From: Candidatus Omnitrophota bacterium
GTDB lineage: Bacteria > Omnitrophota > Gorgyraeia > B26-G9
DNA length: 64,000 nt
Reading direction: 5' to 3'
Assembly: GCA_043826565.1 (NCBI GenBank)
Contig: JBDRPX010000023.1
Span: 5,758-69,757 of the forward strand
This document shows, piece after piece, positions 17,949-56,088 of this stretch (its first letter is position 1; each line of letters begins with the position of its first letter). The notes under the pieces were generated by a model. The model made no database searches and had not been told where the DNA came from. It worked only from the letters and a program-made list of their open reading frames with translations. The position numbers and the translations under genes are program-made.

Positions 17949-17998
17949 GTGTTCCTTAGAGTTACGCGTTAACGCGTTTTCGCGTTTGCGTGTTTAAT
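17949..17998. repeat. GC-rich repeat flanking four-helix-bundle gene 1 (contains perfect palindrome ACGCGTTAACGCGT)
   Basis: gagttACGCGTTAACGCGTtttcgcgtttgcgtg is an island of CGCG units in an AT-rich genome. It is imperfectly complementary to 18385-18432 and encodes the C-terminal tail of the four-helix-bundle ORF. Confidence 0.6.
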
Positions 17999-30182: not shown

Positions 30183-30748
30183 TCATATAACTCATTGATA
30201 TTGGCAAGATACTGCTCAGAGATACGTTTCCATTCGATTTTAAACCAAGGAGTATAGGCAAACGGGTTTTCCCGGACATCTCTGTTGAGCTCTTCTATCT
30301 CTACATATTTCCATTCGGCAATTTCCCGGGAATTCGCTTTAACAATTTGCGTAGCCTTACCCAGATAAACAGAACATAGCTCATACTCGGATCCCAGATC
30401 ATTAAATTGCGCTTGGTATTTAAATTTAAATAAAAACTTCAGCGGTAAGGTCAATCCCAGTTCTTCCTGCAATCGTCTCTGCAGAGCTTCCTCGCAGCTT
30501 TCTCCCTCCCGGGGATGACTGCAAACACCATTTGACCAAAATAGCGGCCAAAGAGGCTTCTCCGCGCTTCTCTTCTGCAGTAATACTTGTTTCTGTTCAT
30601 TAAAAATAAATATAGAAAAAGCCCGATGTAAAACCCCTTTGCCGGCATGGCTTTTTATCTTACTCGCATATCCGATAATATTATCTTCGTCGTCAACAAG
30701 AATTAATTTTTCATCCGGAGATGAGACCTTATTGCTATCAAATTCCAT
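30179..30748 (-). CDS. idi: Isopentenyl-diphosphate delta-isomerase, type 1 (Nudix)
   Basis: 189 aa. HRAFSIFIFNEQKQVLLQKRSAEKPLWPLFWSNGVCSHP...ALQRRLQEELG closely matches the IDI-1 active-site region (C in CSHP, the Nudix E-E-L-G motif). Confidence 0.85.
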   Translation of the reverse strand: MEFDSNKVSSPDEKLILVDDEDNIIGYASKIKSHAGKGVLHRAFSIFIFNEQKQVLLQKRSAEKPLWPLFWSNGVCSHPREGESCEEALQRRLQEELGLTLPLKFLFKFKYQAQFNDLGSEYELCSVYLGKATQIVKANSREIAEWKYVEIEELNRDVRENPFAYTPWFKIEWKRISEQYLANINELYD

Positions 30749-32680: not shown

Positions 32681-32989
32681 TTATTCCTGCTTCTTTTTCC
32701 TTTTAATCAATACCATATTACGAGCATAAATAATAATACCCGCGCCCTGGCCAACGATAAATACCGGATCCTGACGTTTTATGGCATATATGAACAGTAA
32801 GATCCCTCCGCACAAACTAAGCCCCCAAAAAGAATTCGGGATAACACTTTCTTTCCGCCTTTCCGACACAAGCCACTGCACTAAAAAACGCGCCGAAAAC
32901 ATCAACTGCGCTGAAAAACCAAGAACTAACCACCAATCAATAGTCTGAAGTAATTTTTCCAATTTATTTCTCCTTTGTTTCCACAGCAT
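32681..32989 (-). CDS. Small membrane protein, lipid-A-biosynthesis N-terminal (LAB_N, PF07578-like) domain
   Basis: 102 aa with 3 TM segments. WWLVLGFSAQLMFSARFLVQWLVSER matches the LAB_N consensus. Its position beside a GtrB-like GT2 is typical. Confidence 0.5.
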   Translation of the reverse strand: MLWKQRRNKLEKLLQTIDWWLVLGFSAQLMFSARFLVQWLVSERRKESVIPNSFWGLSLCGGILLFIYAIKRQDPVFIVGQGAGIIIYARNMVLIKRKKKQE

Positions 32990-33698
32990 TATCCAGCCAA
33001 TTTTTCATCATCCATCTTACGGCAAACATACTTTTAATCCCTATCCACAACCGATTAGAAATCCCATATTTGCTTTTCCCGGCGATGCGGGGATAATGGG
33101 CTACATCAACCTCAATCACCTTAAAACCCTGCATTTTGATCAACACAGGTATAAACCGATGAAAAGTATCATAAAAAGTTAAATTTGCAACACATTCTTT
33201 TTTAAAAACCTTCATCGGAGATCCAATATCATAAAAATCATCTGATAAAAATTTCTGCCTTATTTTGCGGGCAAAGGCGGTGGAAAAACGTTTACTAAAT
33301 ACATCATTACGCTTTCTCCGGCACCCGGTCACACAATCATACCCTTGCACTAATTTGTCCAATAAAACCTGAATATCCCGGGGATGAGATTGCAAATCAG
33401 CATCCATTAGCCCTAAAATTTCATATTTTGCCTGTTTAATACCTGCGGCCAGGGCCGCGGTTTGCCCACCGTGTTTTTTTACTCTAAAAACTCGAAAAGC
33501 ATCTGTTTCCAGTTGCCGAAGCTGTGCATAAGTATCATCTGAGGAAGCATCATCAATATAGATAACTTCATATTTATCCAAATGACGATTATCCGATAAT
33601 GCCGTCGTGATTTCAGAAAACAGACGTTGAACATTTTCTGATTCATTATATAAGGGTATTATTAAAGAGAAATTCATCGCATTACTCCTTGGTTTCAC
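32964..33698 (-). CDS. Polyprenyl-phosphate glycosyltransferase (GT2; GtrB/ArnC/DPM1-like)
   Basis: 244 aa. FSLIIPLYNESENV...YEVIYIDDASSDDT...GLMDADLQSHP are the GT2 DXD/D motifs of bactoprenol-P sugar synthases. Confidence 0.8.
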   Translation of the reverse strand: MKPRSNAMNFSLIIPLYNESENVQRLFSEITTALSDNRHLDKYEVIYIDDASSDDTYAQLRQLETDAFRVFRVKKHGGQTAALAAGIKQAKYEILGLMDADLQSHPRDIQVLLDKLVQGYDCVTGCRRKRNDVFSKRFSTAFARKIRQKFLSDDFYDIGSPMKVFKKECVANLTFYDTFHRFIPVLIKMQGFKVIEVDVAHYPRIAGKSKYGISNRLWIGIKSMFAVRWMMKNWLDNAVETKEK

Positions 33699-35166
33699 TT
33701 ATATTAATTATTCGTATTGTCGGATTACTAAACGCGAAAGATTTATAAGCAGGTGAGATCTCCTCATACGGCAATTTAAATAATTCCCGATATGTTTTAG
33801 CCGCTTCATATACATTCTCATATTGATCCTTTAAGCTGCTACCAAAAATATATCGATCATATACAAAACTGCTCACCACAAGACAATCCACTCCATTTTT
33901 CCGAACTAAAGGAATATCCGCCTCAACAAGAGAAAACATGTCTTTATGGATAGATGCATATTCTTCATACAGAGCATTTTTATTCCTTTCCTTTATCCAT
34001 TTCTCTGCCTGCATTCGGGTATCTTTATTCAGGTTATTAACCAACTGTAATGAGTCATGAAATGGAATGCCCAACGTTAAAAGCAGTAATGGGTAAACTA
34101 AAACGCGCAATCTCGTACGAATTAAATAATTATTAATTACTAATATTATTTTAACAGCAAAAAAGTCCATTACCGGTATTATCGGAATCATATAGCGTAT
34201 AAAGTCTGGAAATGGCTTTAAAGGCACAATTTCATGTAAAAGATATAGATACCCGGCATAAAACAAAAGAACCTTTTCTATCCATTTTATTTGCCGCCAT
34301 CGAAAGATAGAATAAACAATTCCGGAAACCGCCAATACAGCTATAAGCAATGTCATCCCGGGGATTAAGCTGTTAAAAAAATGGAATCCAAAGCACTGGG
34401 AAAGTGCCGATATTTTAATAGCATGTCCCTGCAAAGCATGATTTTTCTCCAATAAAAAACCATGCCTAAATGTTGAGAAGTTAAAAACAATTGGATAATT
34501 CACTAACAAAAACGTAAAGCCGGAAACACAAAAAGCAGATATAATACTTCTATAATAACGCCATTTTTCTTTAACCTCGATAACGATAGGCATTACAAAA
34601 TAAAAAGGTATGAGTAAAAATCCTTTATACTGCGCGGAAATAGCCAGTCCCAGTCCTACGCCAAACAATAAAGCACGCCGCAGATCCCGATAGCGGATAA
34701 ACTCGATAAACAACAACAAGGAAAGCAAAGCAGAACAGGTAAATATTATATCCTCCTTCAGATAATGGGAATGAATTACCATACTCGGAGACATGGCAAC
34801 TGTTAAAGCTGCGAATAAGGCATAGCGTTTGGGTATGCTTTGGCGAAAAATCAAATAGGCAAACAAAACAGCTAAAGCCCCATAAAAAGCCGTAGATGCC
34901 CGTCCTAATTCAACAACAGATTGATCCGGAGTATAACAAAAAAAGACATTCAATAGCCGAACTGACTGCAGCATAAGTATCGGATGACGAAAATCCTGTT
35001 TATGCGTTTTTATAAAATCAACTTTTTTAATCTCATCGGGGTGGTACCCCAAGAGAAAATTATTATTAAACAGATTAAAACACAATGCAAAAACCAGGAT
35101 TAAAAGCAACCCTGCAATTTCTGCTTTTGTAAATTTCACTCTCTTGATTATTATCGACTCCGGCAT
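33682..35166 (-). CDS. GT-C fold membrane glycosyltransferase (ArnT/PMT_2-like)
   Basis: 494 aa with about 11 TM segments. The first periplasmic loop carries YHPDE, the GT-C 'DE' catalytic motif. Confidence 0.65.
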   Translation of the reverse strand: MPESIIIKRVKFTKAEIAGLLLILVFALCFNLFNNNFLLGYHPDEIKKVDFIKTHKQDFRHPILMLQSVRLLNVFFCYTPDQSVVELGRASTAFYGALAVLFAYLIFRQSIPKRYALFAALTVAMSPSMVIHSHYLKEDIIFTCSALLSLLLFIEFIRYRDLRRALLFGVGLGLAISAQYKGFLLIPFYFVMPIVIEVKEKWRYYRSIISAFCVSGFTFLLVNYPIVFNFSTFRHGFLLEKNHALQGHAIKISALSQCFGFHFFNSLIPGMTLLIAVLAVSGIVYSIFRWRQIKWIEKVLLFYAGYLYLLHEIVPLKPFPDFIRYMIPIIPVMDFFAVKIILVINNYLIRTRLRVLVYPLLLLTLGIPFHDSLQLVNNLNKDTRMQAEKWIKERNKNALYEEYASIHKDMFSLVEADIPLVRKNGVDCLVVSSFVYDRYIFGSSLKDQYENVYEAAKTYRELFKLPYEEISPAYKSFAFSNPTIRIINISETKE

Positions 35167-35212: not shown

Positions 35213-36526
35213 TTAACCCTTAAAAAAACCCTCAATTAAGCTTAACGCTTCCTTAGCTTGCGCATATTGGCTGATTTTATTCTTTAATATTTCAGAATTT
35301 TTTTTATACTTTTCCTCAATAAGTATTTTTTTTACAGCTGCCGACAGATCTGAAGGATCAAGATCATAGTGATTTTGCACTAAAAAAGCATATTTTCCAT
35401 AAGACCATTTGCAATTAATAATTTTAAAGTCTTCCTTGCTTAATTTTAAAACAATAGCGCAGCCAAGCTGTTCTAAACGCCTACCGTTACCTTCTTGTTC
35501 TGAATGAAAAGGGATTATAATCATTGGCTTACCACAAGAAACTGCTTCCATCATTGTTCCATATCCTCCGTGAAAAATCACTAGATCCGCTTGAGGAATT
35601 ATTTCTTGTGCCGGCACCCAATCAAAAAATCTTACATTATCCGGAATGTCGGTCAACTCTGACAAAGTAAATTTACCCGCTGTGGAAACGATCACATTTA
35701 CATCCAGATTGCGCAGTGCTTCAATTACCGTGAGAAAAAAATTCCGGCTGCCAACCAACCCGGCACCTCCGCCGATTGTAATATAAATCAGAGGCTTATT
35801 TCCTTTAACAAAAGAACCCCATCCTTTGTTTTTTTCCTTTTCCCTTTTAAAAATTAATGGCCCAACATATTTCAGATTTTTTTGGTCCATAATTGGCTCG
35901 ATCTCCGGGATGCTGGGAACGATATATAAATCGCCCTTTAGTAATTCTTCGGCTTTGATGATTTGCGGCATATTTAATTTAGTAAGCAGCGGATTAAATA
36001 AAGCAGCAGTATTCGGAGCACTACATTCATAATCCGCAGTTTTCCACCAAATAATACCCTTTGTCTCCGGATGTGAAGCATAGCGTACAACCTGCACCAC
36101 AGGCAAGTCTAATTTTTTGCCAACCAGGCCCGCAAGCATATGAGTATCCGCGATTAAAATATCCGGTTTAATTTTTCTGATAACTGCCTCATATTGCTTT
36201 AAACGATAATTCACAATTCTTAAGCTACCTAGCCCATCACGTAAAACCTGGTAATCAAGACCACTGAACTCAGTAAACAAAGATGTGGCTGGATTATTAA
36301 TCTTTGGTTTTTTTTGTAGAAATTTTTCTTTAATACTTTGAACTAGTGGCTTCTGATCTATCAAAAAAGTCGTAAATTGAGATTTAAGTTTAGGGAAAAA
36401 TTTTTTATCACTTAAAATAAAAACAGGCTCATGGCCTTTATTTCGCGCTTCTTGCGCCAAACAAATACAGCGGCTAATATGCCCGAATCCGCCACCACTA
36501 TCACTAGGAAAAAACACAATCTTCAT
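35213..36526 (-). CDS. UDP-glycosyltransferase, GT1 family (MGT/MurG-like GT-B)
   Basis: 437 aa. The N-terminal GGGFGHISRC is present. The C-terminal FHGGYGTMMEAVSCGKPMIIIPFHSEQEGNGRRLEQLG is a UDPGT-like donor-binding signature. Confidence 0.7.
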   Translation of the reverse strand: MKIVFFPSDSGGGFGHISRCICLAQEARNKGHEPVFILSDKKFFPKLKSQFTTFLIDQKPLVQSIKEKFLQKKPKINNPATSLFTEFSGLDYQVLRDGLGSLRIVNYRLKQYEAVIRKIKPDILIADTHMLAGLVGKKLDLPVVQVVRYASHPETKGIIWWKTADYECSAPNTAALFNPLLTKLNMPQIIKAEELLKGDLYIVPSIPEIEPIMDQKNLKYVGPLIFKREKEKNKGWGSFVKGNKPLIYITIGGGAGLVGSRNFFLTVIEALRNLDVNVIVSTAGKFTLSELTDIPDNVRFFDWVPAQEIIPQADLVIFHGGYGTMMEAVSCGKPMIIIPFHSEQEGNGRRLEQLGCAIVLKLSKEDFKIINCKWSYGKYAFLVQNHYDLDPSDLSAAVKKILIEEKYKKNSEILKNKISQYAQAKEALSLIEGFFKG

Positions 36527-36592: not shown

Positions 36593-38059
36593 CTATATTT
36601 TTTTCCAATACCACCTAAATATAAAAGAATCAAAAAACATGAAAACTGGTTTTACTAATAATATTTTTAATATCCACTCAGGAGATCCGCCTGTAAACAA
36701 TTTTAACCACATTTTAACAAAAGTCGGAGCAATCTCCGTAAATTCCTCCATATAGATCTTTTTTTCTTTTTCAAGAAATCCGTCTTTTATTGCCTTATTA
36801 TAAATTTCCGAACCAGGATACATGATTAAATGAAAGCAAGTAATACTAGTTCTGACTGGTAAGCGCAAAATAAATTTCAAAGTTGATATTATATCATCAG
36901 TATTTTCGTAGGGGTTATCAAATATAAACTGATAGTTTATTAACGGCGGTATGGATTTTTTATAAAATAAATTTCGGTATTTTTCAACAACAGAGATTGC
37001 CGCAAACGCCTGCTCCGGAGTTTCTCGACGGTTATAAATTTTCAAAATCCGTGCACTTGCTGATTCTACGCCAATACCGAATTTATACAGCAACCCGGTT
37101 TCAGCTAGAAGTGAAAATTTCTCATCTTTAATTGTCGAAGGGCTGCCGCTTGTGCCAAAAGGGATCCCTACTTCTTTTCTCCAGCGGTCACAAAATTCTT
37201 TTAAAATCGGTAATGGCAAAGCTGTAATATTATCATCTGCTAAGAAAACCGCACCTACCACTTTTATGTTTTCAATTGCCAACTTGATTTCTTTAAATAA
37301 ATGGTCTAAAGACCTGAATCGGAAATATTGTTGTCCATTATATATCCGTTTTAGATAGGAATTATTACAATAACTACAACTATTCGGACACCCGCGGCTT
37401 AATGCGGTAAGATAAATTATTTTATCCGGAACCGGACGTTTATAAATCCGGTCAATATCCACAATTAATTCCGGAGTTAATATTTGCAATTTCCCTTCCA
37501 AAAAAACTTTTTGCCGATAAATTCCCGTATCTAAAACCGGCAAGGAATTTAAATCCCCGATCAAAGGCCGCAACGGATTTAAAACACATTTGCCTTCCTT
37601 AAGGTAAGCCAGGTTCGGAATATTATAAATATCTTTCCCGCTGACTAATTTTTGCGCTAATTCCACTGCGGTTTTATCCCCTTCTCCGAGACAGACAAAA
37701 TCCGTAAAACTAACTGAATCCTCAAAAGAGGCCGTCGGATGCGGCCCGCCCCAAATGACCGGAATATCCAGTTTTTCTTTCAGCGCTTTCGTAAAATCAC
37801 TAGCCGCGCAAAACTCACTGGCTGCCAGCGATATCCCAACATACAATGAGCCGCGAATATCATCAATGATTTCATCCATAATCTTTTCCGTAGGAACAAA
37901 ACTTTTTAGCGACGGTGCGCGTGAGCCCCGGAGATACCCAGTATAGCCTAAATGCAAATAATTAACTTTAAATCCGGCATCCTGCAAACAAGCCCCGATT
38001 TGCCGCAAGTTTAAACCAAAAAATCCCGGGTAAAATGATATTAACGTAACTTTTTCCAT
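36593..38059 (-). CDS. B12-binding radical SAM protein (class B)
   Basis: 488 aa. An N-terminal cobalamin-binding Rossmann-like domain (DIPVIWGGPHPT) is present. It is followed by the radical SAM cluster LSRGCPNSCSYCNN (CxxxCxxC). Confidence 0.75.
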   Translation of the reverse strand: MEKVTLISFYPGFFGLNLRQIGACLQDAGFKVNYLHLGYTGYLRGSRAPSLKSFVPTEKIMDEIIDDIRGSLYVGISLAASEFCAASDFTKALKEKLDIPVIWGGPHPTASFEDSVSFTDFVCLGEGDKTAVELAQKLVSGKDIYNIPNLAYLKEGKCVLNPLRPLIGDLNSLPVLDTGIYRQKVFLEGKLQILTPELIVDIDRIYKRPVPDKIIYLTALSRGCPNSCSYCNNSYLKRIYNGQQYFRFRSLDHLFKEIKLAIENIKVVGAVFLADDNITALPLPILKEFCDRWRKEVGIPFGTSGSPSTIKDEKFSLLAETGLLYKFGIGVESASARILKIYNRRETPEQAFAAISVVEKYRNLFYKKSIPPLINYQFIFDNPYENTDDIISTLKFILRLPVRTSITCFHLIMYPGSEIYNKAIKDGFLEKEKKIYMEEFTEIAPTFVKMWLKLFTGGSPEWILKILLVKPVFMFFDSFIFRWYWKKI

Positions 38060-38066
38060 GTTTTTT

Positions 38067-39785
38067 CTATTCCCCTGAACGCTTTAACATTAATTTTAAT
38101 TGATTTAGTTTAGCCTGCCGGATTTTCCTTTTCGCAAACCAGGAAATATCAGAAAGCTCATTTTTAACTAATTCGGTTTTAATTTTAAAAAATTTCACAA
38201 TATCTTCGTTGTCGTATCCTTTTAAATAAAAAGGAAAAAAAGCATACATCGGAGAATAATTATAAATCAACCCCGCTTTTTCAATTCGGAGAATAAATTC
38301 CTTAAGCTTCTCCGAAGCACTCAACGAATCTATCGTCGGAGTTTTCCAAAGGCAATAATCATATTTGTCCCCAAAATAGGTCACATTATGTTCGGCTTGC
38401 TCGTCAAAAATTATTGAACCCGGCAGCATATAAAATACATAAATTTTGTATAACTGCAATGGTGAATTATTTATCCAGTTAATCGTATTATTAATGCTTT
38501 CCTCAGTTTCTCCGGGAAAACCGATCATAAAACTGCCATAAGCGATAATCTTATTTTTATCCAGGATTTCTAAACAACGCTGGTTATCCGCAATTGTAGT
38601 TTTCTTATCCATAAGCTTTAACATCCGGTCATCGCCGCTTTCTAATCCCACACAAAGCACTTTACATCCCGATTCTCTTAAAAGTATCGCATTTTCCTCT
38701 GTAATGGAATTAGAACGGATCCCGGCAAACCAGTTAAAATAAAATTTTTCATCAATCATCATCTGACAAATTTGTTCAATACGCTTGGGATGTACAGCAA
38801 AATGATCATCAGTAAAAGCAACATTCTTTATTCCGGCTTTTTTTATTTCTCTTAATTCATTACGGACACTTTCCATCGACCGCTGGTAAATCTTTACTGT
38901 AGCTTTAGGAAAATTACAGAACTTACAGCGAAAAGCACATCCTTGGCTAGCCCGCACAAATGCGATGTCTTTAGTAATTCCCGCTATCTTTGCCCAATCC
39001 GGAAAATCATTATTTAAATCTAATGGATCTGCACCCCGCCGAGAATAGTTTATGCTCCCCTTACGTTTATAAACCAGATTGTTTAAAAGATTAATATCTG
39101 TATTCTTTTTTAAAGCCTCAAGCAATTTATGCAAACTCGGCAAGCCGTTCTCTTCCAGGATAAAATAAATATTTTCATCAATTAATAGATTCTCATAATC
39201 CGGTAGCAGCTTTCCTTGGTCGGTTAATTTAGTTAATATCACGTTACTGCCCATAATAATCGGAATGCTTTTATTTAAGCCCCTAATCAGTAAAATAATT
39301 GCCATTATCTCTTGCGGACTCACAAAATAAGTCGCGGAAATCGCGACTGACAAAGGATTGTTTTTTAAAATTGCTTTCAATTCGTCTTTACATTCAGCAA
39401 CATTATCCATATTAACCGGAGAATAGCCTTTTTTTAATAAAAAATCATAAATATGCAAAGATGTGATAGTCGGAATTCCTGTGGGATTGAAAAACTTTTT
39501 ATCTTTTTGCGGTTCGTAGACATATTTATTATTATTTAATGCAAAATTAAGTAACTCAAATATTCCAAAACGCCAGAAACCAATCCATTCCGGAGCGATA
39601 ATATTATAAAGAATTCGTTCTTTAATTTTTTTGACATTATTTATTTTTGAAATATTTTTCAAGAAGAGCTTGTTTTTAATATACGATAAAACCACTCGCC
39701 CCCTCTTTAAAAATGTTTCTTTTGCAGTTATTGCCGGGATCCGGTTACGGCAGATTATAATTACCTGTTCATTTTTCATTTTCAA
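38067..39785 (-). CDS. B12-binding radical SAM protein (class B), second copy
   Basis: 572 aa. The B12-binding region IPIIMGSNVIL is present. The CxxxCxxC cluster is ASQGCAFRCKFCNF. It is clearly a paralog of the neighbour but strongly diverged. Confidence 0.75.
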   Translation of the reverse strand: MKMKNEQVIIICRNRIPAITAKETFLKRGRVVLSYIKNKLFLKNISKINNVKKIKERILYNIIAPEWIGFWRFGIFELLNFALNNNKYVYEPQKDKKFFNPTGIPTITSLHIYDFLLKKGYSPVNMDNVAECKDELKAILKNNPLSVAISATYFVSPQEIMAIILLIRGLNKSIPIIMGSNVILTKLTDQGKLLPDYENLLIDENIYFILEENGLPSLHKLLEALKKNTDINLLNNLVYKRKGSINYSRRGADPLDLNNDFPDWAKIAGITKDIAFVRASQGCAFRCKFCNFPKATVKIYQRSMESVRNELREIKKAGIKNVAFTDDHFAVHPKRIEQICQMMIDEKFYFNWFAGIRSNSITEENAILLRESGCKVLCVGLESGDDRMLKLMDKKTTIADNQRCLEILDKNKIIAYGSFMIGFPGETEESINNTINWINNSPLQLYKIYVFYMLPGSIIFDEQAEHNVTYFGDKYDYCLWKTPTIDSLSASEKLKEFILRIEKAGLIYNYSPMYAFFPFYLKGYDNEDIVKFFKIKTELVKNELSDISWFAKRKIRQAKLNQLKLMLKRSGE

Positions 39786-42180
39786 CTCCCTCTAAAACAT
39801 GAATCATTCCATTATCGGCATCGACAAATATTTTTTGGCCGGTTTTAATTTTCCGGGTTGCTGTAAATAAATTGCCTACAGCCGGAATACCTATTTCCCG
39901 GGCAACAATTGCTCCATGCGATAAATAATTACCCATATCCGTTACAATTGCGCCCGCAATTGCAAACAATGGCGTCCAACTTGGGTTAGTTGAAGCTGCC
40001 ACTAAAATCTCACCTGCCTTTAAAAGACCCATATCTTTTTTGCTCTTTATCACTCTGGCAATGCCCGTATAATTCCCACTGCTTAAGGCTAATCCCTGCA
40101 GGCTTAATCCCGGAGACTGTTTATGAGAAATTTTTTCTTCCCGGCCACTTTTGTAAATCCTGATCTGTTCAAAAGGTTCCTGCAAACATAAACGTTCCCA
40201 ATCCAGTTTTCTTTGATCGATACAATTCTGTTCTATTTGGGAATCTTTTGTGCAAGCTTCGTCTAATGTCATAAAAAAAATATCATTTAAAGTCTCAAGT
40301 TTCTTTTTTTGAGAAAGTGAAAGGGCCTGTTTTCGAATCTGAAACATTATTTTAACAATATTTTGCTTTATTGCCTCTCTCCAGATACTGCATTTCTGAA
40401 TATGCCGGATAAAAAACTTAGTTGGAAAACGAAATAATAAAGGGATGCTTTTCAATACAAGATTTTCCGTTTTAACTCGTCTCTGGACACGCGAATCTCT
40501 TTCTTGCTCAAAATTAATCTCTGTTTTCTGTGCAATATAATGCTTAAGTGTTATCTCGACAAAACTAGGATCTTCAGCCCAACGAGGATAAAACAACTCA
40601 AATTCCTTTAAAGATTGATGCCCGAATTTTCCCAGAAAGTCATCCCACTTTCTCGCAGAATCCGCTCCATACTTAGAAATAATACCGTGAAAAGAACCTG
40701 AGGAATTTTCTATTTTTTCTAATAAATGTTTTTCCTTGCGTATCGAAGAAGCCAGTTCCCATAAAGCTTCGCTGGCAGCGGTACTCTCGATTTTTCCAAG
40801 CCCGGTAACTAATCCATCCATTATAACCGATACTTTTTCATTCGGCATATTTTTTTTAATTAAACCGCCTAGAATTGCAGTGCCTAATTCAAAGGAAATA
40901 GCGACTTTAACATGTATTTTCATATTTTGTTCTAAAAATTCTCTTAAATCCTTTAACGCTTCTTTTTCTTCCAAAATCATGCTTTGGCTCAATCTTTCAG
41001 GGAATCGCTTTTGCGCCACATGCACAAGAAAAGGTAACCTTATAAGAGATATAAAATAAAAAAATAAGATTTTAAACAAGATAAAGGGATTATGCTTTTT
41101 AATATCCTGAACATTATAAATCTGTTTGAACACCGTTTGATTACAATAAGCTCTGCCGTCAAAAAGAGAAAACAGATCCTGCTCAATGGGGGGTAGTCCT
41201 AAGCTTGCTACCGCATTTTTAAAACCTTGATTTGTGGCCTTATTCACAACTGACCAGGTAAATGGAGTTACAACATCAGGAATAACATCTGCCACATTAT
41301 CCCGGGTCCACAAAATATATTCATCTTGTTTGGTCTTACCTATTGTGATAGGCCTTACCTGCAAAACAAATAATTTATTTTCTTGATATGCCCATTCAAT
41401 ATCTACCGGATATTTAAACAACTCTTTTATCTTTTGCGCTAATCGGGAGATCTCTTCTATTTGCTTCAAGTTTAAAACAGGATGATCCGATAATTTATCC
41501 GGCAGTTCGCTTAATTGTTGCGGATTCTCCGGAGAACGCCAATGTCTTTGCTTTCCGGTAATAACCTTATTTACATTCTCATTATCTATATCAATCTCAT
41601 ATTGATCTGCTACCGCTTCCCCGCTTACTAATGCCTCGGCCAAACCATAAACCGCATTAATAATAATGTTTTTACTTTCGGGGTGGTTAGGATCTTGTGA
41701 AAAACATACTCCTGAACTAATCGGAGAAAGTACTTTTTGAATAAGCAAAGCCATCCTTCTAGGCTTATCCATTTTATTCACTGAAATCTCCTGTTCATAA
41801 CATTTAACATTCTGAGAGTCACCCGATTTCCAACAAGCCTGACACGCATTCTTAATCTCAGAAGTCTCATTCTGACAAATTAAAGACAGATACTGGCCCG
41901 CATAAGAAGCTTGAGCGCTATCCTCGGATTCTCCTGATGACCGGACAATCAGCAAACAATTATCAGGAAAACACTTTTTTATATCCGAATAAAGCTGTTC
42001 TAAGTTTTCTTTGTTTTTAAAAGCAGTATACGCTTGAAAATTTAAAATTACCCCATCAGGCACGGAAAACCCCGTTTTATAGCAAATCGCGCAATTAAAC
42101 GCCTTTGCCCCTGTAAAGGGTAAACCTTCAGCATAAGCTTCATCATATGTGTAAATAAATTTGTTAGGCACCAAAAACAA
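39769..42180 (-). CDS. PEP-utilising phosphotransferase (PEP synthase / rifampin-phosphotransferase-like: PPDK_N ATP-grasp + phosphohistidine swivelling domain)
   Basis: 803 aa. The N-terminal PPDK_N-like domain carries GAKAFNCAI...VIVRSS. The C-terminal GNYLSHGAIVAREIGIPAVGN is the PEP-utilizers mobile-domain signature with the phospho-His. Confidence 0.7.
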   Translation of the reverse strand: MFLVPNKFIYTYDEAYAEGLPFTGAKAFNCAICYKTGFSVPDGVILNFQAYTAFKNKENLEQLYSDIKKCFPDNCLLIVRSSGESEDSAQASYAGQYLSLICQNETSEIKNACQACWKSGDSQNVKCYEQEISVNKMDKPRRMALLIQKVLSPISSGVCFSQDPNHPESKNIIINAVYGLAEALVSGEAVADQYEIDIDNENVNKVITGKQRHWRSPENPQQLSELPDKLSDHPVLNLKQIEEISRLAQKIKELFKYPVDIEWAYQENKLFVLQVRPITIGKTKQDEYILWTRDNVADVIPDVVTPFTWSVVNKATNQGFKNAVASLGLPPIEQDLFSLFDGRAYCNQTVFKQIYNVQDIKKHNPFILFKILFFYFISLIRLPFLVHVAQKRFPERLSQSMILEEKEALKDLREFLEQNMKIHVKVAISFELGTAILGGLIKKNMPNEKVSVIMDGLVTGLGKIESTAASEALWELASSIRKEKHLLEKIENSSGSFHGIISKYGADSARKWDDFLGKFGHQSLKEFELFYPRWAEDPSFVEITLKHYIAQKTEINFEQERDSRVQRRVKTENLVLKSIPLLFRFPTKFFIRHIQKCSIWREAIKQNIVKIMFQIRKQALSLSQKKKLETLNDIFFMTLDEACTKDSQIEQNCIDQRKLDWERLCLQEPFEQIRIYKSGREEKISHKQSPGLSLQGLALSSGNYTGIARVIKSKKDMGLLKAGEILVAASTNPSWTPLFAIAGAIVTDMGNYLSHGAIVAREIGIPAVGNLFTATRKIKTGQKIFVDADNGMIHVLEGVENEK

Positions 42181-43219
42181 ACCTCTCTAATTTCCCGCAT
42201 TCTTTATCTTGGATTTCTCCATTAATTGACAATTGAGCGTTAACAACTGTTTGTAAATATTGCCCCTTGCCTAAGTGTGACTTTAACCATTTCGGATATG
42301 ATTTTAACTTTAATAAATAAAACATAATCACTAATAGTGTATTTAACCGGTTATTATTTGTCATCCCTAAAGGAAACTCCTGAGACACATAATTACAATC
42401 AGAGATTAAGCTAATCTCATACTGTTTATCAGCATTAAAACTAAGTTTCATACTGTACGGCACTCCACTTTCTGTGATATCATTCTCTGCTCCGGATTTC
42501 TCACTGACCTTCAAATCAATAGCGTTGATTTGTTTACCGCTTTTATCCAGCAAACATAAAATCCTAAGTTTTTCTTTTTTTCCTTTTATCTCTATTTCAG
42601 AAAATATAAATGTAAAGTCCTTAAAAAACACTCGGGTCCAAACCCACCCTTTAAACTCTCGCGCGATATTGAGATTACCCCAATTATGATCGTGATACGC
42701 AATCCCCTCGATATTTATAGTTCTCCGGTCAATTTCAATCTTTCCTTTTGCTTGCGCCCGAGGTAAAGGAACGATCCAATTAAACCACTCATTGTTTGTT
42801 TTATTTTTATAGATACACTCACTGTTGTTACAAAAAAATGGCAATTGACGTTTTAGCGTTACATCAACCGTAATGTCCTTTTCCTTAACAAAAATTTTAT
42901 AATCCCCGTTATTTTCTTCTATCCGCCCACCCGGGAAAATAATTTTACAAAAATTTTTATCCTGGGTAATCTTTGCCCGCGAATAGCGTAAAACCCGTAC
43001 TGTAGATTGACCCTGATCATGATTATTTTTATTAAAATTTTCATATATCCGGATAATTAAAAGGCATAAATTATTTCTCAGGCTAAAGACCGGGGACTGC
43101 CACTCTATATATACATTCCTCCCATCTTTTAAATCAAAATCAAAATACCACCACTCGAAAAACTTACTCGGATTTTCTATGTGAGACCCATCATGCCGCA
43201 AAGATTTAGATTGATCCAT
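42164..43219 (-). CDS. Putative CrtC/AttH-family protein (hydroxyneurosporene-synthase-like hydratase + lipocalin-like domain); low confidence
   Basis: 351 aa. FFEWWYFDFDL was recalled as characteristic of the PF07143 family. The size fits. The call is supported mainly by its position next to a CrtI/CrtD-like gene. Confidence 0.4.
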   Translation of the reverse strand: MDQSKSLRHDGSHIENPSKFFEWWYFDFDLKDGRNVYIEWQSPVFSLRNNLCLLIIRIYENFNKNNHDQGQSTVRVLRYSRAKITQDKNFCKIIFPGGRIEENNGDYKIFVKEKDITVDVTLKRQLPFFCNNSECIYKNKTNNEWFNWIVPLPRAQAKGKIEIDRRTINIEGIAYHDHNWGNLNIAREFKGWVWTRVFFKDFTFIFSEIEIKGKKEKLRILCLLDKSGKQINAIDLKVSEKSGAENDITESGVPYSMKLSFNADKQYEISLISDCNYVSQEFPLGMTNNNRLNTLLVIMFYLLKLKSYPKWLKSHLGKGQYLQTVVNAQLSINGEIQDKECGKLERFVFGA

Positions 43220-43238: not shown

Positions 43239-44600
43239 TTATAACTTATTTTGTTTAGCAATTAACCGCCCGCATTGAATTCCTGATTCCATTGCCTGAG
43301 GCACACATGGGCCTTCCGGAGACACGGAATCTCCCACTAAAAATAATCCATGAATATCCGTTTCGACAGGAACACGTGGAGATTGAATTTGCGGCTCTAC
43401 TCCAAAAACATAAGCCGGCAACCCAAATTCTTTTTCATACATTTTTGGATTATAAATAGTATAATTTGTCACTGCACCAGCTAACCCGGGGAACAAATCA
43501 TTAAGCCCCTGGTTTAAAACTAAATGAGCCTGTTTTTCAACCAGATCCGGGTTCACATTTCCTCGGGGATGATAAAACTGCAATGTTGCTCGGTGACAAT
43601 CTTTTACATCATATTCCATATTTGAGGGTATATGCATTATAAACATTGACTTGGCCGGGAATTCCCCCCGTTCTAATAAATCAAACTCGGAAGACACATC
43701 GTAAGGCATAAAAAAAACACCATATCCTTTAGGCAATCTAAACGATTTACGGAATCTAATAAAGATATTAACAACGCTTAATGTTTCTTTCATCTGGCTC
43801 ACTGCATTATAAAAATCTTTTTTCCAATTTTCGCGTCGTGTTAAATTCAAAACTGTCTGTCGCAAACCAACATTGCTGATTATAGTTTCCGCGAATAGAT
43901 TTTCGCCGTCAGCTTCAACTCCGACAACACGCTCCTTTTCAATAATTATTTTTTTTATTGTTTTATTCATGATTATTTTGCATTTCTTTTCGGCTACTTC
44001 CATTAGTTTTGCCGCAATTTGGCCATTTCCTCCGGCAATATACTCAGGGTTAAGTCCTTTATACTCTGCTATTGCACTTTCTTGAGAAAAATATCTTGAA
44101 GGTAATCCATAGGGGCTAACCCCAGAAACTGCTACTATGGTATCCCAGAATCTTCTTAGTTTTTCATTCGATATCAATTGATCGTATAATTCCCCTACAG
44201 ATTTGAACTTTTCAAAAGTATCCGAATCACTCAAAATCTTTGCTTTAGCTCTAAACCTTAACAACTCTGTAAACGGAATACCAGAAAAAATGAATTCTAT
44301 CAGCGTTCTTTTCCCTAAAGGAAATGAAGCCATTCCTTTACCAATCTTTATGCCACAACGCATCGGAAAAGTTGTAAGATTAAGCCCAAAAGTATCTCTT
44401 AAATGATCAAATGCCGCTCCTCCAACGTAAATAGCCCCGATTTCATAGCTTAATCCATCAATACTTCTCGTTGCACACCGCCCTCCCAACAGACTATTTT
44501 GTTCGATCAAAATCGAATTGATTCCGTTCTTACTTAAGTAAGCCGCAGCAGTTAGCCCTCCGACACCTCCTCCGATAATAATTACAGGCACCTTACTCAT
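43239..44600 (-). CDS. Phytoene-desaturase-family FAD oxidoreductase (CrtI/CrtD/CrtN-like)
   Basis: 453 aa. The N-terminal VIIIGGGVGGLTAAAYLSKNGINSILIEQNSLLGGRCAT is the FAD-binding motif. The C-terminal GLFLVGDSVSPEGPCVPQAMESG is CrtI-typical. Confidence 0.75.
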   Translation of the reverse strand: MSKVPVIIIGGGVGGLTAAAYLSKNGINSILIEQNSLLGGRCATRSIDGLSYEIGAIYVGGAAFDHLRDTFGLNLTTFPMRCGIKIGKGMASFPLGKRTLIEFIFSGIPFTELLRFRAKAKILSDSDTFEKFKSVGELYDQLISNEKLRRFWDTIVAVSGVSPYGLPSRYFSQESAIAEYKGLNPEYIAGGNGQIAAKLMEVAEKKCKIIMNKTIKKIIIEKERVVGVEADGENLFAETIISNVGLRQTVLNLTRRENWKKDFYNAVSQMKETLSVVNIFIRFRKSFRLPKGYGVFFMPYDVSSEFDLLERGEFPAKSMFIMHIPSNMEYDVKDCHRATLQFYHPRGNVNPDLVEKQAHLVLNQGLNDLFPGLAGAVTNYTIYNPKMYEKEFGLPAYVFGVEPQIQSPRVPVETDIHGLFLVGDSVSPEGPCVPQAMESGIQCGRLIAKQNKL

Positions 44601-45601
44601 CAGACTGCTCCCACTATTTTTAAGCGATTATTTAATAATACCAATAAAGGGAAAAATGTTTTTTTATAAGGAGTTTTTGCAGACATATACTGTAGGAATT
44701 TTTTAGTATAAAAATTTTTCGTCATTCTGGAAAATTCCTTTCGGGCAATCTTCTCATTCATGAAATAATCTGCCGCAATTTTCCCAGACAAAAGCGCTCC
44801 GGAAATCCCGTTTAAGTAAAAGGGGTCGATCATTCCGCTCATCGTTCCAGCTAAAGCAATTCCCTCTTTTTCGATATTTTTATTAAGCGGAATACTGCCG
44901 GAGGAAAATGTCCATGATTTAAAAGCAATTTTTTCTTTTTCCCAAATAAAATCCTCAAATCTTTTCAGCTTATCGCTACTCATTGAATTACGGGAAAACA
45001 AAAGGCCGAAAACACAATCTTCATATGAAGCAAGATAAGCAAACTCCCCATTTGTATAATCACCAAAACATGAAACCGCCATATTTTTGTTTTGCGTAAT
45101 TCCCGAAGCCCTAAACCCCTGGATCATCTTATATTTGATGCCGCATATTTGATAAGCCGGAAGCTCTAATCCGCAAGCAATTATAGCTTTTGATCTGTCT
45201 TTTTTGAGAGAATTTAAAGTTTCTTGATCAAGCGGCTGGTTAAAAATAAATTTCACTCCTAACCCGCAAGCAATTTTATAAAGGTAATTTTCAATTGAAT
45301 TTTCATGGCCGCCTTTTAAACACAAAAAAGCGTGAAGAGGGTTCACAGCATGAGTTTTTTTGTCATAAAAATATATCGAATGTCTTACCGCACGGCGAAA
45401 ACACCGCGACATATCGATACCGATGTATTCCGAGGTGCGTTCAAGGTCCATATATTGCAGATGAACAGACGGATGCCATTTAGGATCGCCCCCTACTGTT
45501 TTTCTGTTTTCAATGATTTCCGCTTCAAAACCGGCCTTAGCCAAATTTATGCCGGCAACCAACCCGGAAATGCCTGCTCCGTAAATTCTAATTTTTTCCA
45601 T
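44600..45601 (-). CDS. Geranylgeranyl-reductase-family flavoprotein (GGR-like FAD-dependent oxidoreductase)
   Basis: 333 aa. The N-terminal IYGAGISGLVAGINLAKAG is a Rossmann motif. The C-terminal LAGTMSGMIDPFYLNGISGALLSG resembles the GGR GDAAG..P..GEGI motif. Confidence 0.55.
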   Translation of the reverse strand: MEKIRIYGAGISGLVAGINLAKAGFEAEIIENRKTVGGDPKWHPSVHLQYMDLERTSEYIGIDMSRCFRRAVRHSIYFYDKKTHAVNPLHAFLCLKGGHENSIENYLYKIACGLGVKFIFNQPLDQETLNSLKKDRSKAIIACGLELPAYQICGIKYKMIQGFRASGITQNKNMAVSCFGDYTNGEFAYLASYEDCVFGLLFSRNSMSSDKLKRFEDFIWEKEKIAFKSWTFSSGSIPLNKNIEKEGIALAGTMSGMIDPFYLNGISGALLSGKIAADYFMNEKIARKEFSRMTKNFYTKKFLQYMSAKTPYKKTFFPLLVLLNNRLKIVGAV

Positions 45602-45621: not shown

Positions 45622-47067
45622 TTAAGATGATTTTAAAAAACTTAAAATTTCGGAAATTTTTTTCATTTTTAATTCACCAAGCACGATCAGAAAAATAGTA
45701 TAACAAAATAGTCCGACAAAAAACGGGATCAGGAAAAACATATCTTTCATAAAGAAGATTATTCCTCCTGTCAAAATAGCAGCAAAAATCGGCTTATATC
45801 CTAAACTGATCAAAGTAGGACTATTTTTAAACGACTCCCTGAATAAACGCGATTTCATTACAAGCACTAGGAAACCACAAAAAACAGTTGCCGCACTTGC
45901 ACCCAGGTATCCATATTGGGGAATCAAAATAAGATTTAACACGAAATTTGCACAGATTATAATCAATGAGCCAACCATTAAGATTTTAAGTTTTTCTTTC
46001 TGCACAATCAAAAACAGCCCCATTGGCCCGGCAAAATGATTCAACAAGAAAGACCAGATTAAAATCCTGAAAACCTGAGAACTAAGGGCAAATTCCTTTC
46101 CAAAAACAAATGGCACAATTTGCCCAGAAAGCAAAAACAGTGCTACCGTAAAAAAACTGGAAAAAATTATCATTACTCTCATTGATTTAAGATATATTGG
46201 GTATGTATTTTCTAAAGAGCTCTTACTTTGGGATGATATAAATGGCAGCATCGCACCCATAAAACAACCAGTTACCACACCTAAAGCTTCATTCAGTTGA
46301 ACCGCCACCCCATATATTCCTACATCCTGCATAGTTTTCATTTTAGAAAGCATGACAATATCCATTCTTCTTAATAAAATGCTTAAACCAATAAGAGAAA
46401 AAAGAGGAAAAGCCTGCTTTAAAAGACTATTTACTATCTTCAGATCAAATCTGGGTTTAAATTTGACAAAATCCTTTTGAACAATGTAAAAAAGCACAAG
46501 GGAAGTAATTCCTGTGCCTAAGATCATCAGCAATATCATTCCCCCAAGATTTAAACCTAACCGAAGAAATAAAATACCCAATATCGTAAAAAAAGCGGAA
46601 AGAACGACCCCAACAACAGAAAAGATTTCCATCTTCTCAAATCCGCTTAAAACCGCGGTTAACCGGCTAATTGCCGAATTAAAAAAGATCGTGCTGCCCG
46701 CTAAAACAATTAAAAAAATCAATTGTTTAGGGTAACCTAAATACACTGCGAAAAGTACCATCCCTATCCAGGCCAGCAATGAAAAACCCATGGATAAAAA
46801 TATGGAATTACCATAAAGCTCCTGAGCTTTTGTCTTGTCTTTGGCGATTTCCCGGGTGATGACAGTTGATAAACCAAAATCCGCAAAAATATTAGCAAAA
46901 GTAAGAAAAGCTAAAATAGTGGAAAACATGCCGAAGCCGTCCCGAGAAAGATATCGGGCTACGTACGAGATAAAAATTAAATTTATGACCCCCGTAAATA
47001 CTTTATTACCGAAAAGAGCAATCGTATTTTTAATTACTCTGAATAGGTCCGTTTTTTTATGTTCCAT
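45622..47067 (-). CDS. Wzx-type flippase (polysaccharide biosynthesis protein, MOP superfamily), second copy
   Basis: 481 aa with 12-14 TM segments. N-terminus: IKNTIALFGNKVFTGVINLIFISYVARYLSRDGFGMFSTILAF. Confidence 0.75.
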   Translation of the reverse strand: MEHKKTDLFRVIKNTIALFGNKVFTGVINLIFISYVARYLSRDGFGMFSTILAFLTFANIFADFGLSTVITREIAKDKTKAQELYGNSIFLSMGFSLLAWIGMVLFAVYLGYPKQLIFLIVLAGSTIFFNSAISRLTAVLSGFEKMEIFSVVGVVLSAFFTILGILFLRLGLNLGGMILLMILGTGITSLVLFYIVQKDFVKFKPRFDLKIVNSLLKQAFPLFSLIGLSILLRRMDIVMLSKMKTMQDVGIYGVAVQLNEALGVVTGCFMGAMLPFISSQSKSSLENTYPIYLKSMRVMIIFSSFFTVALFLLSGQIVPFVFGKEFALSSQVFRILIWSFLLNHFAGPMGLFLIVQKEKLKILMVGSLIIICANFVLNLILIPQYGYLGASAATVFCGFLVLVMKSRLFRESFKNSPTLISLGYKPIFAAILTGGIIFFMKDMFFLIPFFVGLFCYTIFLIVLGELKMKKISEILSFLKSS

Positions 47068-47070
47068 TTA

Positions 47071-47847
47071 TTATCTCTTTATCTTTTCTGTTTTCAAACC
47101 ACCCTGCGCTTTTTTTGAACAACTTTTCTCCGTCTTAAAAAAATTCACACGTTTCTTTTTATGAATTATTTTATGTAAAAATTTTCTAATTCTAGGCTTT
47201 GAAGTGTAAAAATCTTCAAAATGATCCCAAGGCCTGTCATCACGGCTATTCTTTTGAAATAAAATTAGATTTGCCTGAGGAGTTTTAACTAAACTATAGT
47301 CTTTACGATTGGTTTTTATCCAGGAGGAAATACTCTGTAATGCCGGCATCCAAGAATCATGAAACAGAATATAACTACCCTGATTTAATAATAAGTCAGC
47401 AAAGAAAAAATCCACAAACGCGAAATCAAATTTATGATCTCCATCTATAAAAATAAAATCAAATTTCATGCCATCATCAAGAAACTGCGGCAAAATATTA
47501 TATGAGAAATCATTTTTAAAAGTAAGATACTTATCAAACCCCAGATTCTTCAAATTTTTCAATCCCAGATTTTTAAATTTTTCCTGAAAAGGGTCAATGG
47601 CGTAATGCCGGCTTTCTGTTGCCGAAATAATATGTGCAGCCGAACACCCAAAGGCCAAACCAATTTCTAGAGTTTTTTTTATATTTTTTTCCTTTAAAAA
47701 AAAGTGGATGTATTCCGCTTCATCTTTTGAAATTGAGATTAAAGAATATTTTTCAGGAATTACTAAGTTCTCATATATATTCTGTGTCATATTATTCTCC
47801 GGCAATTGGATTATCCTCAATCTTTTAAAATTACTTACTCTTTCCAC
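47071..47847 (-). CDS. Class I SAM-dependent methyltransferase (Methyltransf_24 / O-MT family 3-like)
   Basis: 258 aa. LEIGLAFGCSAAHI is a glycine-rich SAM motif. FIFIDGDHKF...GSYILFHD matches the family. Confidence 0.55.
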   Translation of the reverse strand: MERVSNFKRLRIIQLPENNMTQNIYENLVIPEKYSLISISKDEAEYIHFFLKEKNIKKTLEIGLAFGCSAAHIISATESRHYAIDPFQEKFKNLGLKNLKNLGFDKYLTFKNDFSYNILPQFLDDGMKFDFIFIDGDHKFDFAFVDFFFADLLLNQGSYILFHDSWMPALQSISSWIKTNRKDYSLVKTPQANLILFQKNSRDDRPWDHFEDFYTSKPRIRKFLHKIIHKKKRVNFFKTEKSCSKKAQGGLKTEKIKR

Positions 47848-56087: not shown

Positions 56088-56088
56088 G

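Follow-up and report, generated by a model that had tools for sequence, protein, structure and literature searches.

Rifampin phosphotransferase (RPH) converts ATP and its substrate into AMP, inorganic phosphate and a phosphorylated product by means of a swivelling phospho-histidine domain (PMC4844700), and the roles of its residues His825 and Arg666 have been described (PMC13534948, PMC4844700). In the related enzymes PigC and HapC the same machinery phosphorylates an aldehyde oxygen and thereby drives a condensation (PMC13534948). Lipids are also the targets of class B radical S-adenosylmethionine (SAM) enzymes: GrsA/B, Gmm, HpnP/R, HpnJ and MoeK5 are encoded next to lipid-biosynthesis genes and act on unactivated isoprenoid carbons or on a lipid-linked sugar (PMC13459092, PMC9204698, PMC11214058). 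C-methylation is the commonest class B reaction, and cyclization (Grs) and ring contraction (HpnJ) are also known (PMC13459092, PMC9204698). Published accessions include saci_1585 for GrsA, WP_062369928.1 for Gmm and WP_026084738.1 for MoeK5 (PMC11214058), and a 2026 review of lipid-modifying radical SAM enzymes covers Tes, Mss, Gms, GrsA/B, Gmm, Cds, HpnH, HpnJ, HpnP/R, Jaw5 and the ladderane enzymes (PMC13459092). The window considered here, a 64-kb stretch of contig JBDRPX010000023.1 from a Candidatus Omnitrophota bacterium, carries a trio of adjacent genes that encode an RPH/PigC-type kinase and two radical SAM proteins. The balance of probability leans slightly towards this trio being the tailoring core of an isoprenoid glycoconjugate (glycolipid) pathway, while the single chemical steps of such a pathway deserve much less confidence.

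The preliminary description of this DNA, which was made from its letters alone, had placed two radical SAM genes next to a phosphotransferase gene, and minus-strand open reading frames (ORFs) of 488, 572 and 803 amino acids (aa) are indeed present there:

36593..38059, minus strand: rSAM488, a predicted B12-binding (class B) radical SAM enzyme of 488 aa with a hydrophobic, aromatic-rich C-terminal helix.
37367..37390, minus strand: CxxxCxxC motif of rSAM488 (C224/C228/C231), read from the translation and invariant in 25 homologues.
38067..39785, minus strand: rSAM572, a radical SAM enzyme of 572 aa from a rare family that is sister to the PhpK-type class B enzymes.
38916..38939, minus strand: CxxxCxxC motif of rSAM572 (C283/C287/C290), read from the translation and invariant in 15 orthologues.
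39769..42180, minus strand: RPH/PigC-type ATP-dependent dikinase (803-aa ORF, 800 aa as deposited) with ATP-grasp, central substrate and C-terminal phospho-His swivel domains.
39916..39918, minus strand: codon of His755, the predicted phospho-carrier histidine, in the motif NYLSHGAIVARE; it aligns to the catalytic His825 of RPH-Lm.

The kinase ORF overlaps that of rSAM572 by 17 nt as listed and by about 11 nt with the deposited start codons, and the two radical SAM genes are separated by a gap of 7 nt. All three sit inside a co-directional minus-strand array of 26 genes and about 29 kb (29721-58834), in which neighbouring genes overlap or lie less than about 70 nt apart, and which is bordered by a gap of 639 nt upstream and one of 442 nt downstream, before wza.

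Gene neighbourhoods were compared for nine places with orthologues, and a presence matrix was built by tblastn of the window proteins against the eight loci for which DNA was available: a metagenome-assembled genome (MAG) of the Planctomycetes-Verrucomicrobia-Chlamydiae (PVC) group (L001), a MAG from Syntrophotaleaceae (L002), and contigs of unclassified metagenomes or MAGs taken from JGI, ENA and NCBI (L083-L086, L089 and L090). The kinase and a lipocalin-domain protein resembling AttH and CrtC were present in all eight, a GT1 glycosyltransferase (44-84% identity) and a UbiA-type prenyltransferase in six each, rSAM572 in five and rSAM488 in four. The AttH/CrtC-like gene adjoins the kinase gene in most of the eight loci, a MOP-family flippase is found in most related neighbourhoods, and a gene for DXP synthase (DXS), isopentenyl diphosphate (IPP) isomerase (IDI) or HMG-CoA reductase/mevalonate kinase lies near several of the related clusters. 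The conserved unit is thus the kinase with the AttH-like protein, accompanied in most loci by GT1 and the flippase Wzx, in an isoprenoid context. It occurs in uncultured, mostly anaerobic bacteria of the PVC group and Syntrophotaleaceae and on unclassified metagenome contigs. The suggestion that the trio performs chemically unusual tailoring of a sugar or an isoprenoid lipid fits in its general form, given the co-conservation with DXS, IDI, a prenyl-diphosphate synthase homologue, UbiA, the AttH/CrtC-like protein, GT1 and Wzx.

In the window and in L001, L002 and L083 all three genes stand side by side. One locus (L090) has rSAM572 without rSAM488, another (L089) has rSAM488 without rSAM572, and L085 and L086 have neither; rSAM488 and rSAM572 are thus tailoring modules that are optional and can be separated. 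In four genomes (the window, L001, L083 and L090) the kinase ORF shares 4-17 nt with that of rSAM572, an overlap that points to coupled expression. The arrangement is kept at 41-57% protein identity in unrelated lineages, far beyond what chance would produce. A further module appears in L084 and L090 and, instead of the radical SAM genes, in L085 and L086. In these four loci a gene of the RtcB family separates the kinase/radical SAM genes from Wzx/GT1, and in L085, L086 and L090 it is preceded by a gene for a protein of about 350 aa, which is weakly ScmC-like in L085 and L090. RtcB activates a phosphomonoester by guanylylation and then joins it to a hydroxyl, and its position beside a dikinase suggests phosphodiester formation on a non-RNA substrate.

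The domain architecture of the 803-aa protein is that of RPH. Pfam places PPDK_N at residues 57-287 (E 2e-45) and the PEP-utilizers mobile domain at residues 721-791 (E 6e-21), at the extreme C-terminus, and finds no PEP-utilizers_C (PF02896) TIM barrel; in the orthologues, the precomputed Pfam set places Rph_4th (PF27448) between PPDK_N and PEP-utilizers. The best PDB matches are the Listeria RPH structures 5FBS/5HV1 (E 7e-51), aligned over the ATP-grasp domain and residues 502-796. Besides the correspondence of His755 with the catalytic histidine, Arg601 aligns to Arg666 of RPH, and the nucleotide-site motif VRSSGESED...SYAGQ is conserved. The preliminary description had left two relatives in play for this protein. 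Domain order, best structural match and the two aligned residues bear out a rifampin-phosphotransferase architecture. The PpsA-like alternative is wrong, since the protein lacks the phosphoenolpyruvate (PEP)/pyruvate TIM barrel and carries its histidine domain at the C-terminus, not mid-chain. From the shared architecture, catalytic histidine and substrate-site arginine, a dikinase-type transfer from ATP to histidine to a substrate oxygen is expected, and by sequence the protein has every catalytic hallmark of such an enzyme.

Among the members of this superfamily, the kinase belongs by sequence to an orthologue family of its own, and is no orthologue of any characterized member. That family comprises about 30 sequences at 39-48% identity, with the next relatives falling to 28%. 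The NCBIfam models for PigC (301 bits, cutoff 1300), RedH (263, cutoff 1350) and Rph (NF041857; 238.7, cutoff 999) and the PpsA models (203-211 bits, cutoffs 598-740) all score it far too low. A hydrophobic stretch at residues 364-390 had been considered as a conserved membrane anchor, an idea that was dropped because the stretch is not conserved in the orthologues. Two distant homologues, P0142 and P0161, are fusions of an RPH-like dikinase to a PlsY (PF02660) domain. PlsY is an acyl-phosphate:glycerol-3-phosphate acyltransferase, and these fusions hint that some members of the RPH-like family make acyl phosphates for lipid synthesis.

With regard to the radical SAM proteins, rSAM488 has clear matches to Radical_SAM (PF04055, E 4e-15) and B12-binding (PF02310, 39.1 bits, cutoff 32.1). 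In rSAM572, Radical_SAM (E 6e-27) is the only significant Pfam domain: the B12-binding match is sub-threshold at 12.9 bits (E 0.1), and it is weak in 13 of 15 orthologues as well (best E 6e-4). The claim that both proteins bind B12 therefore stands at the level of Pfam for rSAM488 and fails by this profile for rSAM572, where structural evidence favours the domain. An AlphaFold2 model shows an N-terminal Rossmann-like domain which, like the whole chain, resembles TsrM, MgmA and CysS. The best NCBIfam match by far, TIGR04479 (PhpK family; 288.4 bits, cutoff 600), is near full-length and spans the N-terminal domain and the radical SAM core. It is this full-length match and the model that support a putative N-terminal B12 domain in rSAM572. 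Judged from sequence and model, rSAM488 has the class B fold and rSAM572 probably has it, with cobalamin use predicted for both. To call them two paralogous copies was an overstatement: they share 24% identity over 213 core residues, they are not recent paralogues, and each is found without the other in related loci.

Neither protein falls inside BchE, HemN or another curated NCBIfam family. Scores for rSAM488 and rSAM572, respectively, are 66 and 75 bits against a cutoff of 481 for BchE, 86 and 94 against 578 for HpnJ, and 24 and 35 against 650 for HpnR; HemW (hemN_rel) reaches 26 bits against 205, and the cutoffs of the TsrM-type, KedN5 and HemN/HemZ models are not reached by the pair either. 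These values bear on the possibility that the trio consists of housekeeping or resistance genes brought together by chance, namely a PEP synthase or rifampin-resistance gene beside BchE/HemN-like tetrapyrrole enzymes. Database labels of the homologues do read 'pyruvate, water dikinase', 'rifampicin phosphotransferase' and 'anaerobic Mg-protoporphyrin IX monomethyl ester cyclase'. This explanation is nevertheless barely credible, in view of a kinase without PEP-utilizers_C and with a C-terminal histidine domain, of PpsA, Rph, BchE and HemN-type models that all stay well under their cutoffs, and of the cross-phylum synteny with isoprenoid and glycosyltransferase genes.

The family of rSAM572 is rare and tight. 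An exhaustive profile search of 1.84 billion representatives recovered one full-length 50%-identity cluster (988 bits), and the next full-length protein scored 333 bits. A scan of genome contigs with the rSAM572 alignment gave, among the matches listed, relatives of at most 28% identity (from Acidobacteriota and others) and no true orthologue, and nothing informative came from the genes around P0031 and P0040, the closest PhpK-like relatives. A role as methylthiotransferase was rejected on account of the missing conserved N-terminal cysteines. The resemblance to PhpK raises the alternative of a phosphonate or phosphinate product, in which rSAM572 would be a PhpK-type P-methyltransferase and the PEP-utilizing enzyme would feed or modify a C-P compound. 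It has in its favour that TIGR04479 is the best NCBIfam match of rSAM572, at 288 bits and near full-length, and that several orthologues are labelled 'p-methyltransferase' by JGI. Yet that score is under half of the cutoff, identity to PhpK-like proteins is about 27%, the 803-aa enzyme has no PEP-binding domain, and no PEP mutase, phosphonopyruvate decarboxylase or other C-P gene is present among the window ORFs of at least 100 aa or in the nine neighbourhoods. A C-P product is accordingly very improbable, and the phosphonate-like substituent named in the preliminary description finds no support. The cluster is conserved yet uncharacterized, and its chemistry is neither housekeeping nor phosphonate chemistry.

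Transcription of the 26-gene array begins with two GT2 glycosyltransferase genes, followed by genes for a radical SAM/SPASM protein, an HpnA-like short-chain dehydrogenase/reductase (SDR), a 524-aa membrane protein, a methyltransferase and another GT2. It continues through the prenyl-diphosphate synthase homologue, two further GT2s, UbiA, an O-methyltransferase, Wzx and geranylgeranyl-reductase-like, CrtI/CrtD-like and AttH/CrtC-like proteins. It ends with the kinase, rSAM572, rSAM488, GT1, a PMT/ArnT-like GT-C, an ArnC-like GT2, a LAB_N protein, DXS, IDI and a glyoxalase-fold protein. The flanks reported earlier are correct, with GT1, GT-C and GT2 genes downstream of the trio and CrtC-like, CrtI-like and geranylgeranyl-reductase-like genes upstream. 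An Rfam scan of the window at gathering thresholds gave zero matches, the cobalamin riboswitch included, and the window therefore has no such riboswitch. The window has about 36% G+C and practically all of its genes, including every substantial one, on the minus strand; from end to end of the 64 kb the GC skew stays negative, at about -0.1 to -0.37. Directly upstream of the array, across the 639-nt gap, lies a gene whose product joins a PilZ domain to a T2SSE-type secretion ATPase (59474-60868, minus strand), which may place surface-polymer loci under control responsive to cyclic di-GMP.

The isoprenoid and lipid-associated genes of the array, with the glyoxalase-fold and O-methyltransferase genes, are these:

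29721..30182, minus strand: glyoxalase/VOC-fold protein, with whose gene the array ends.
30179..30748, minus strand: type 1 IPP isomerase (IDI, Nudix fold); NF002995 169.8 bits (cutoff 127), TIGR02150 152.5 (cutoff 105.8).
30767..32635, minus strand: DXS; DXP_synthase_N 391 bits; also clustered in L001 and L002.
42164..43219, minus strand: AttH/CrtC-like lipocalin-domain protein, 351 aa; PF07143 33.1 bits (cutoff 22.5).
43239..44600, minus strand: CrtI/CrtD-family flavin oxidoreductase, accessory; Amino_oxidase E 2e-16; found only in the window and L084.
44600..45601, minus strand: geranylgeranyl-reductase-like flavoprotein, accessory; NAD_binding_8; GG-red-SF 33.8 bits against 158.8; also in L001 and L084.
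47071..47847, minus strand: SAM-dependent O-methyltransferase-like protein, window-specific; Methyltransf_24 and Methyltransf_3; no homologue in the related loci.
47856..49001, minus strand: UbiA-superfamily membrane prenyltransferase; PF01040 41.7 bits (cutoff 34.2); NExxDxxxD (67-75) and DxxxD (196-200).
50921..51799, minus strand: short-chain prenyl-diphosphate synthase homologue; polyprenyl_synt E 3e-27; FPPsyn 229 bits against 275, CrtE 223 against 460.

IDI is likewise clustered in L001, L002 and L086. The UbiA-type protein has several transmembrane-like hydrophobic segments and only weak NCBIfam matches. In the AttH/CrtC-like protein the motifs EWWYFD, YHDHNWGN and WxWxR are conserved; it matches the PDB structure of AttH (2ICH) at E 0.011 and the NCBIfam CrtC model at 21 bits against 400. 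The CrtI/CrtD-like protein stays below the cutoffs of all NCBIfam carotenoid models (CrtD 65 against 580).

The co-occurrence of UbiA, CrtC-domain, CrtI/CrtD-family and GT1 genes invites comparison with the synthesis of carotenoid-type pigments such as C45/C50 carotenoids or bacterioruberin. In that case UbiA would be a lycopene elongase, the CrtC-like protein a 1,2-hydratase, the CrtI-like protein a desaturase and GT1 a CrtX-like glucosyltransferase, with radical SAM chemistry replacing O2-dependent tailoring, a logic that we take to resemble that of LyeJ/CrtD/CruF. The CrtC and CrtD scores just given are far below cutoff, the CrtI-like gene is missing from most related clusters, and the phytoene/squalene synthase (SQS_PSY) domain occurs in no window ORF of at least 100 aa. 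Such a pathway would also leave the invariant kinase unexplained, and the host lineages are non-phototrophic anaerobes; a carotenoid product is thus quite unlikely. A hopanoid cluster was rejected as well, because all Hpn scores are sub-cutoff (HpnA 111 bits against 368, HpnH 52 against 225, HpnJ 86 against 578, HpnE 47 against 283) and no squalene-hopene cyclase is present.

Glycosylation and transport are represented by the following genes:

32681..35166, minus strand: periplasmic-glycosylation set, window-specific and absent from the related loci, with a PMT/ArnT-like GT-C at 33682-35166.
32964-33698 and 32681-32989, minus strand: rest of that set, namely an ArnC/PgfS-like polyprenyl-phosphate GT2 and a LAB_N small membrane protein, respectively.
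35213..36526, minus strand: GT1 (GT-B) natural-product-type glycosyltransferase; EryCIII-like_C, Glyco_tran_28_C and UDPGT; MGT subfamily 126 bits against 260.
45622..47067, minus strand: Wzx/MOP-family flippase; Polysacc_synt E 2e-26.
48992-49909 and 49899-50873, minus strand: two GT2 glycosyltransferases.
51833..58834, minus strand: upstream sub-module of a GT2, a methyltransferase, the 524-aa membrane protein, the HpnA-like SDR, the radical SAM/SPASM protein and two GT2s.

The PDB relatives of GT1 are YjiC, CalG1, OleD and a sterol glucosyltransferase. By sequence it groups with the YjiC/OleD/CalG/sterol-glucosyltransferase type, which normally acts on small lipophilic acceptors. The upstream sub-module is co-conserved in L002, L083, L085 and L089. 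Its 524-aa polytopic membrane protein (53540-55114, minus strand) has many hydrophobic segments and no Pfam or NCBIfam match, and may be a GT-C-like enzyme or a polymerase; L083 has a family-less 528-aa protein at the matching position, for which tblastn shows no similarity to the window protein.

Downstream of the array follow wza, wzz, a bacterial tyrosine (BY) kinase gene and an ordinary Wzx/Wzy exopolysaccharide (EPS) locus. In total the window has more than ten glycosyltransferases, two Wzx and one Wzy besides Wza, Wzz and the BY kinase. None of its ORFs of at least 100 aa contains a phosphoglycosyl-transferase domain, whether Bac_transf or Glycos_transf_4. This setting admits the explanation that the array supplies the neighbouring exopolysaccharide or capsule with a specialized lipid carrier or lipid anchor, with the kinase yielding a prenyl-type phosphate primer that replaces the phosphoglycosyl-transferase step; the array would then produce an anchor for a polymer, not a free glycolipid. 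The absence of that transferase from a window so rich in polymer genes would be accounted for, as would the wza, wzz, BY-kinase and sugar-nucleotide genes that directly follow the array in the window and L001, and the conservation of Wzx across the cluster family. The transferase gene may, however, simply sit elsewhere in the genome, the cluster is not beside Wza/Wzz export genes in the Syntrophotaleaceae locus (L002) or in L083, and GT1 enzymes of the YjiC/OleD type normally glycosylate small lipophilic acceptors. A carrier function is consequently rather unlikely, though it deserves more weight than the carotenoid and C-P alternatives. As to the EPS locus itself (1-26000, minus strand), it contains several ATP-grasp, FemAB-like GNAT (Acetyltransf_6), asparagine-synthase, AMP-binding and APH-kinase genes, a content that suggests an amino-acid-decorated, possibly phosphorylated polysaccharide. 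Three paralogous '23S rRNA-intervening sequence protein' genes (PF05635, four-helix bundle) stand among the EPS genes, at 24304-24666, 19467-19877 and 17962-18381 on the minus strand.

For the glycolipid pathway favoured here, the product is most likely a phosphorylated, sugar-decorated isoprenoid lipid, and a plausible order of events can be outlined. DXS and IDI, whose family membership is clear, would raise the supply of IPP and dimethylallyl diphosphate. The short-chain prenyl-diphosphate synthase and the UbiA-type prenyltransferase would then build a membrane-bound isoprenoid scaffold. The AttH/CrtC-like protein, if it behaves as its family suggests, would hydrate an isoprenoid double bond to give a hydroxyl, or would present the lipid. 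Next, the kinase would bind ATP in its ATP-grasp domain, become phosphorylated on His755 and pass the phosphoryl group to an oxygen of its presumed lipid substrate, yielding a phosphate ester or else, as with PigC, an activated leaving group. As probable class B enzymes, the kinase-coupled rSAM572 and rSAM488 may use radicals to modify unactivated carbons in the lipid or in its first sugar, most likely by methylcobalamin-dependent C-methylation, with cyclization or ring contraction as alternatives. Finally, GT1 would add a sugar from a nucleoside diphosphate (NDP)-sugar to the lipophilic acceptor, the GT2s would extend it and Wzx would flip the product outward.

Several observations weigh against the glycolipid reading. 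All of its chemical steps are drawn from superfamily membership, and no protein of the trio reaches the curated NCBIfam cutoff of any characterized family. For rSAM572, a putative cobalamin binder, the Pfam match is sub-threshold, and AprD4, a close structural match of rSAM572, has the same fold yet is a 1,2-diol dehydratase, not a methylase. AprD4 is not known to need cobalamin. The prenyl-diphosphate synthase of the window has both Asp-rich motifs degenerate: the first (FARM) reads HAGLAATGNED versus MDDLPHMDD in the L002, L083 and L085 orthologues, with the L001 sequence (HEDLPATGNRD) intermediate, and the second (SARM) reads FNDLRD versus FDDLLD in the same three. Between the window and L001 this synthase and rSAM572 are also the most diverged proteins (67% and 70% identity; others 77-91%). 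Without intact Asp-rich motifs in the clustered enzyme, another, housekeeping synthase may substitute, or the pathway may be partly decayed. The missing phosphoglycosyl transferase makes the substrate of Wzx uncertain, and since the array abuts the Wza/Wzz/EPS locus in the Omnitrophota and PVC genomes, some of the glycosyltransferases may serve the polysaccharide instead of a discrete lipid.

A more specific form of the glycolipid reading, offered tentatively and with well under an even chance of being right, is that the cluster makes, by an undescribed route, a bacterial lipid of a new class, located at the surface or in the membrane. Hydration would give an isoprenoid alcohol, which a swivelling-histidine dikinase, instead of a kinase of the DgkA or dolichol-kinase type, would phosphorylate; glycosylation and flipping would follow, and cobalamin radical SAM enzymes would methylate or cyclize the chain. 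The core would then be the kinase, the AttH-like protein, GT1 and Wzx, with the class B radical SAM and RtcB-like modules optional. Archaeal Grs and Gmm would have their bacterial counterparts in these radical SAM enzymes, which would also be a possible source of orphan methylated or cyclized isoprenoid biomarkers in anoxic sediments. Radical SAM modification of isoprenoids underlies geochemical proxies such as the rings of glycerol dialkyl glycerol tetraethers (GDGTs) and methylhopanes, and bacterial analogues would affect the interpretation of such biomarkers.

If the glycolipid reading holds, candidate phyla without cultured members (Omnitrophota and others of the PVC group) and anaerobic Desulfuromonadota would possess an undescribed class of lipid or glycolipid. 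An RPH-type dikinase would for the first time have a physiological role, in lipid metabolism, that is neither resistance nor pigment formation. There would also be two new class B radical SAM subfamilies, one of them the rare PhpK sister, with a defined genomic context tractable for enzymology. In practical terms, the cluster is compact and testable, with about 8-10 core genes for heterologous expression. A search of the literature for this gene combination found no paper describing the cluster.

Comparison with described systems shows how far each part of the cluster has a counterpart. RPH-Lm (5FBS/5HV1) and PigC/HapC/RedH have the same three-part order as the kinase, with an ATP-grasp domain, a central substrate domain and a C-terminal phospho-histidine swivel. 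The catalytic histidine and substrate-site arginine are shared with RPH, at a presumably low identity to the solved RPH proteins. The context of the kinase consists of isoprenoid and glycosylation genes, unlike RPH, which is associated with rifamycin exposure, and unlike PigC/RedH, which belong to pyrrole biosynthesis; the window has no pig or red genes. PhpK/BcpD (TIGR04479) is the nearest curated family to rSAM572, which differs in forming a separate, tight clade at about 27% identity and in having no phosphonate context. The AttH/CrtC-like protein shares the N-terminal lipocalin domain of the CrtC/AttH family (PF07143; 2ICH), scores 21 bits against 400 with the CrtC equivalog and is not accompanied by carotenoid backbone genes.

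GrsA/GrsB, Gmm, HpnP/HpnR, HpnJ, Cds and MoeK5 combine a Rossmann-like B12 domain with a radical SAM barrel, as the class B pair is predicted to do, and the hydrophobic C-terminal helix of rSAM488 recalls that described for Grs models; for Grs, Gmm, Cds and MoeK5 the likeness is one of description only. Unlike the cluster, the Grs, Gmm, Hpn, Cds and MoeK5 systems lack both an RPH-type kinase and a partner resembling AttH, and neither accompanies any of the lipid-modifying enzymes in the 2026 review. The closest conceptual precedent is moenomycin. Moenomycin-type phosphoglycolipid synthesis shares with the cluster a logic of prenyltransferases, several glycosyltransferases, a B12-radical SAM enzyme (MoeK5) and a phosphate link between lipid and glycan (PMC9204698, PMC11214058). 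The cluster, found in uncultured Gram-negative anaerobes, has no MoeO5-type prenyl-3-phosphoglycerate synthase and has instead a UbiA prenyltransferase, with a kinase in place of pre-phosphorylated glycerate; the likeness of the two is one of overall logic. Each enzyme of the cluster comes from a known superfamily, and clusters for isoprenoids or glycolipids that rely on class B radical SAM enzymes for tailoring are a kind of system already known.

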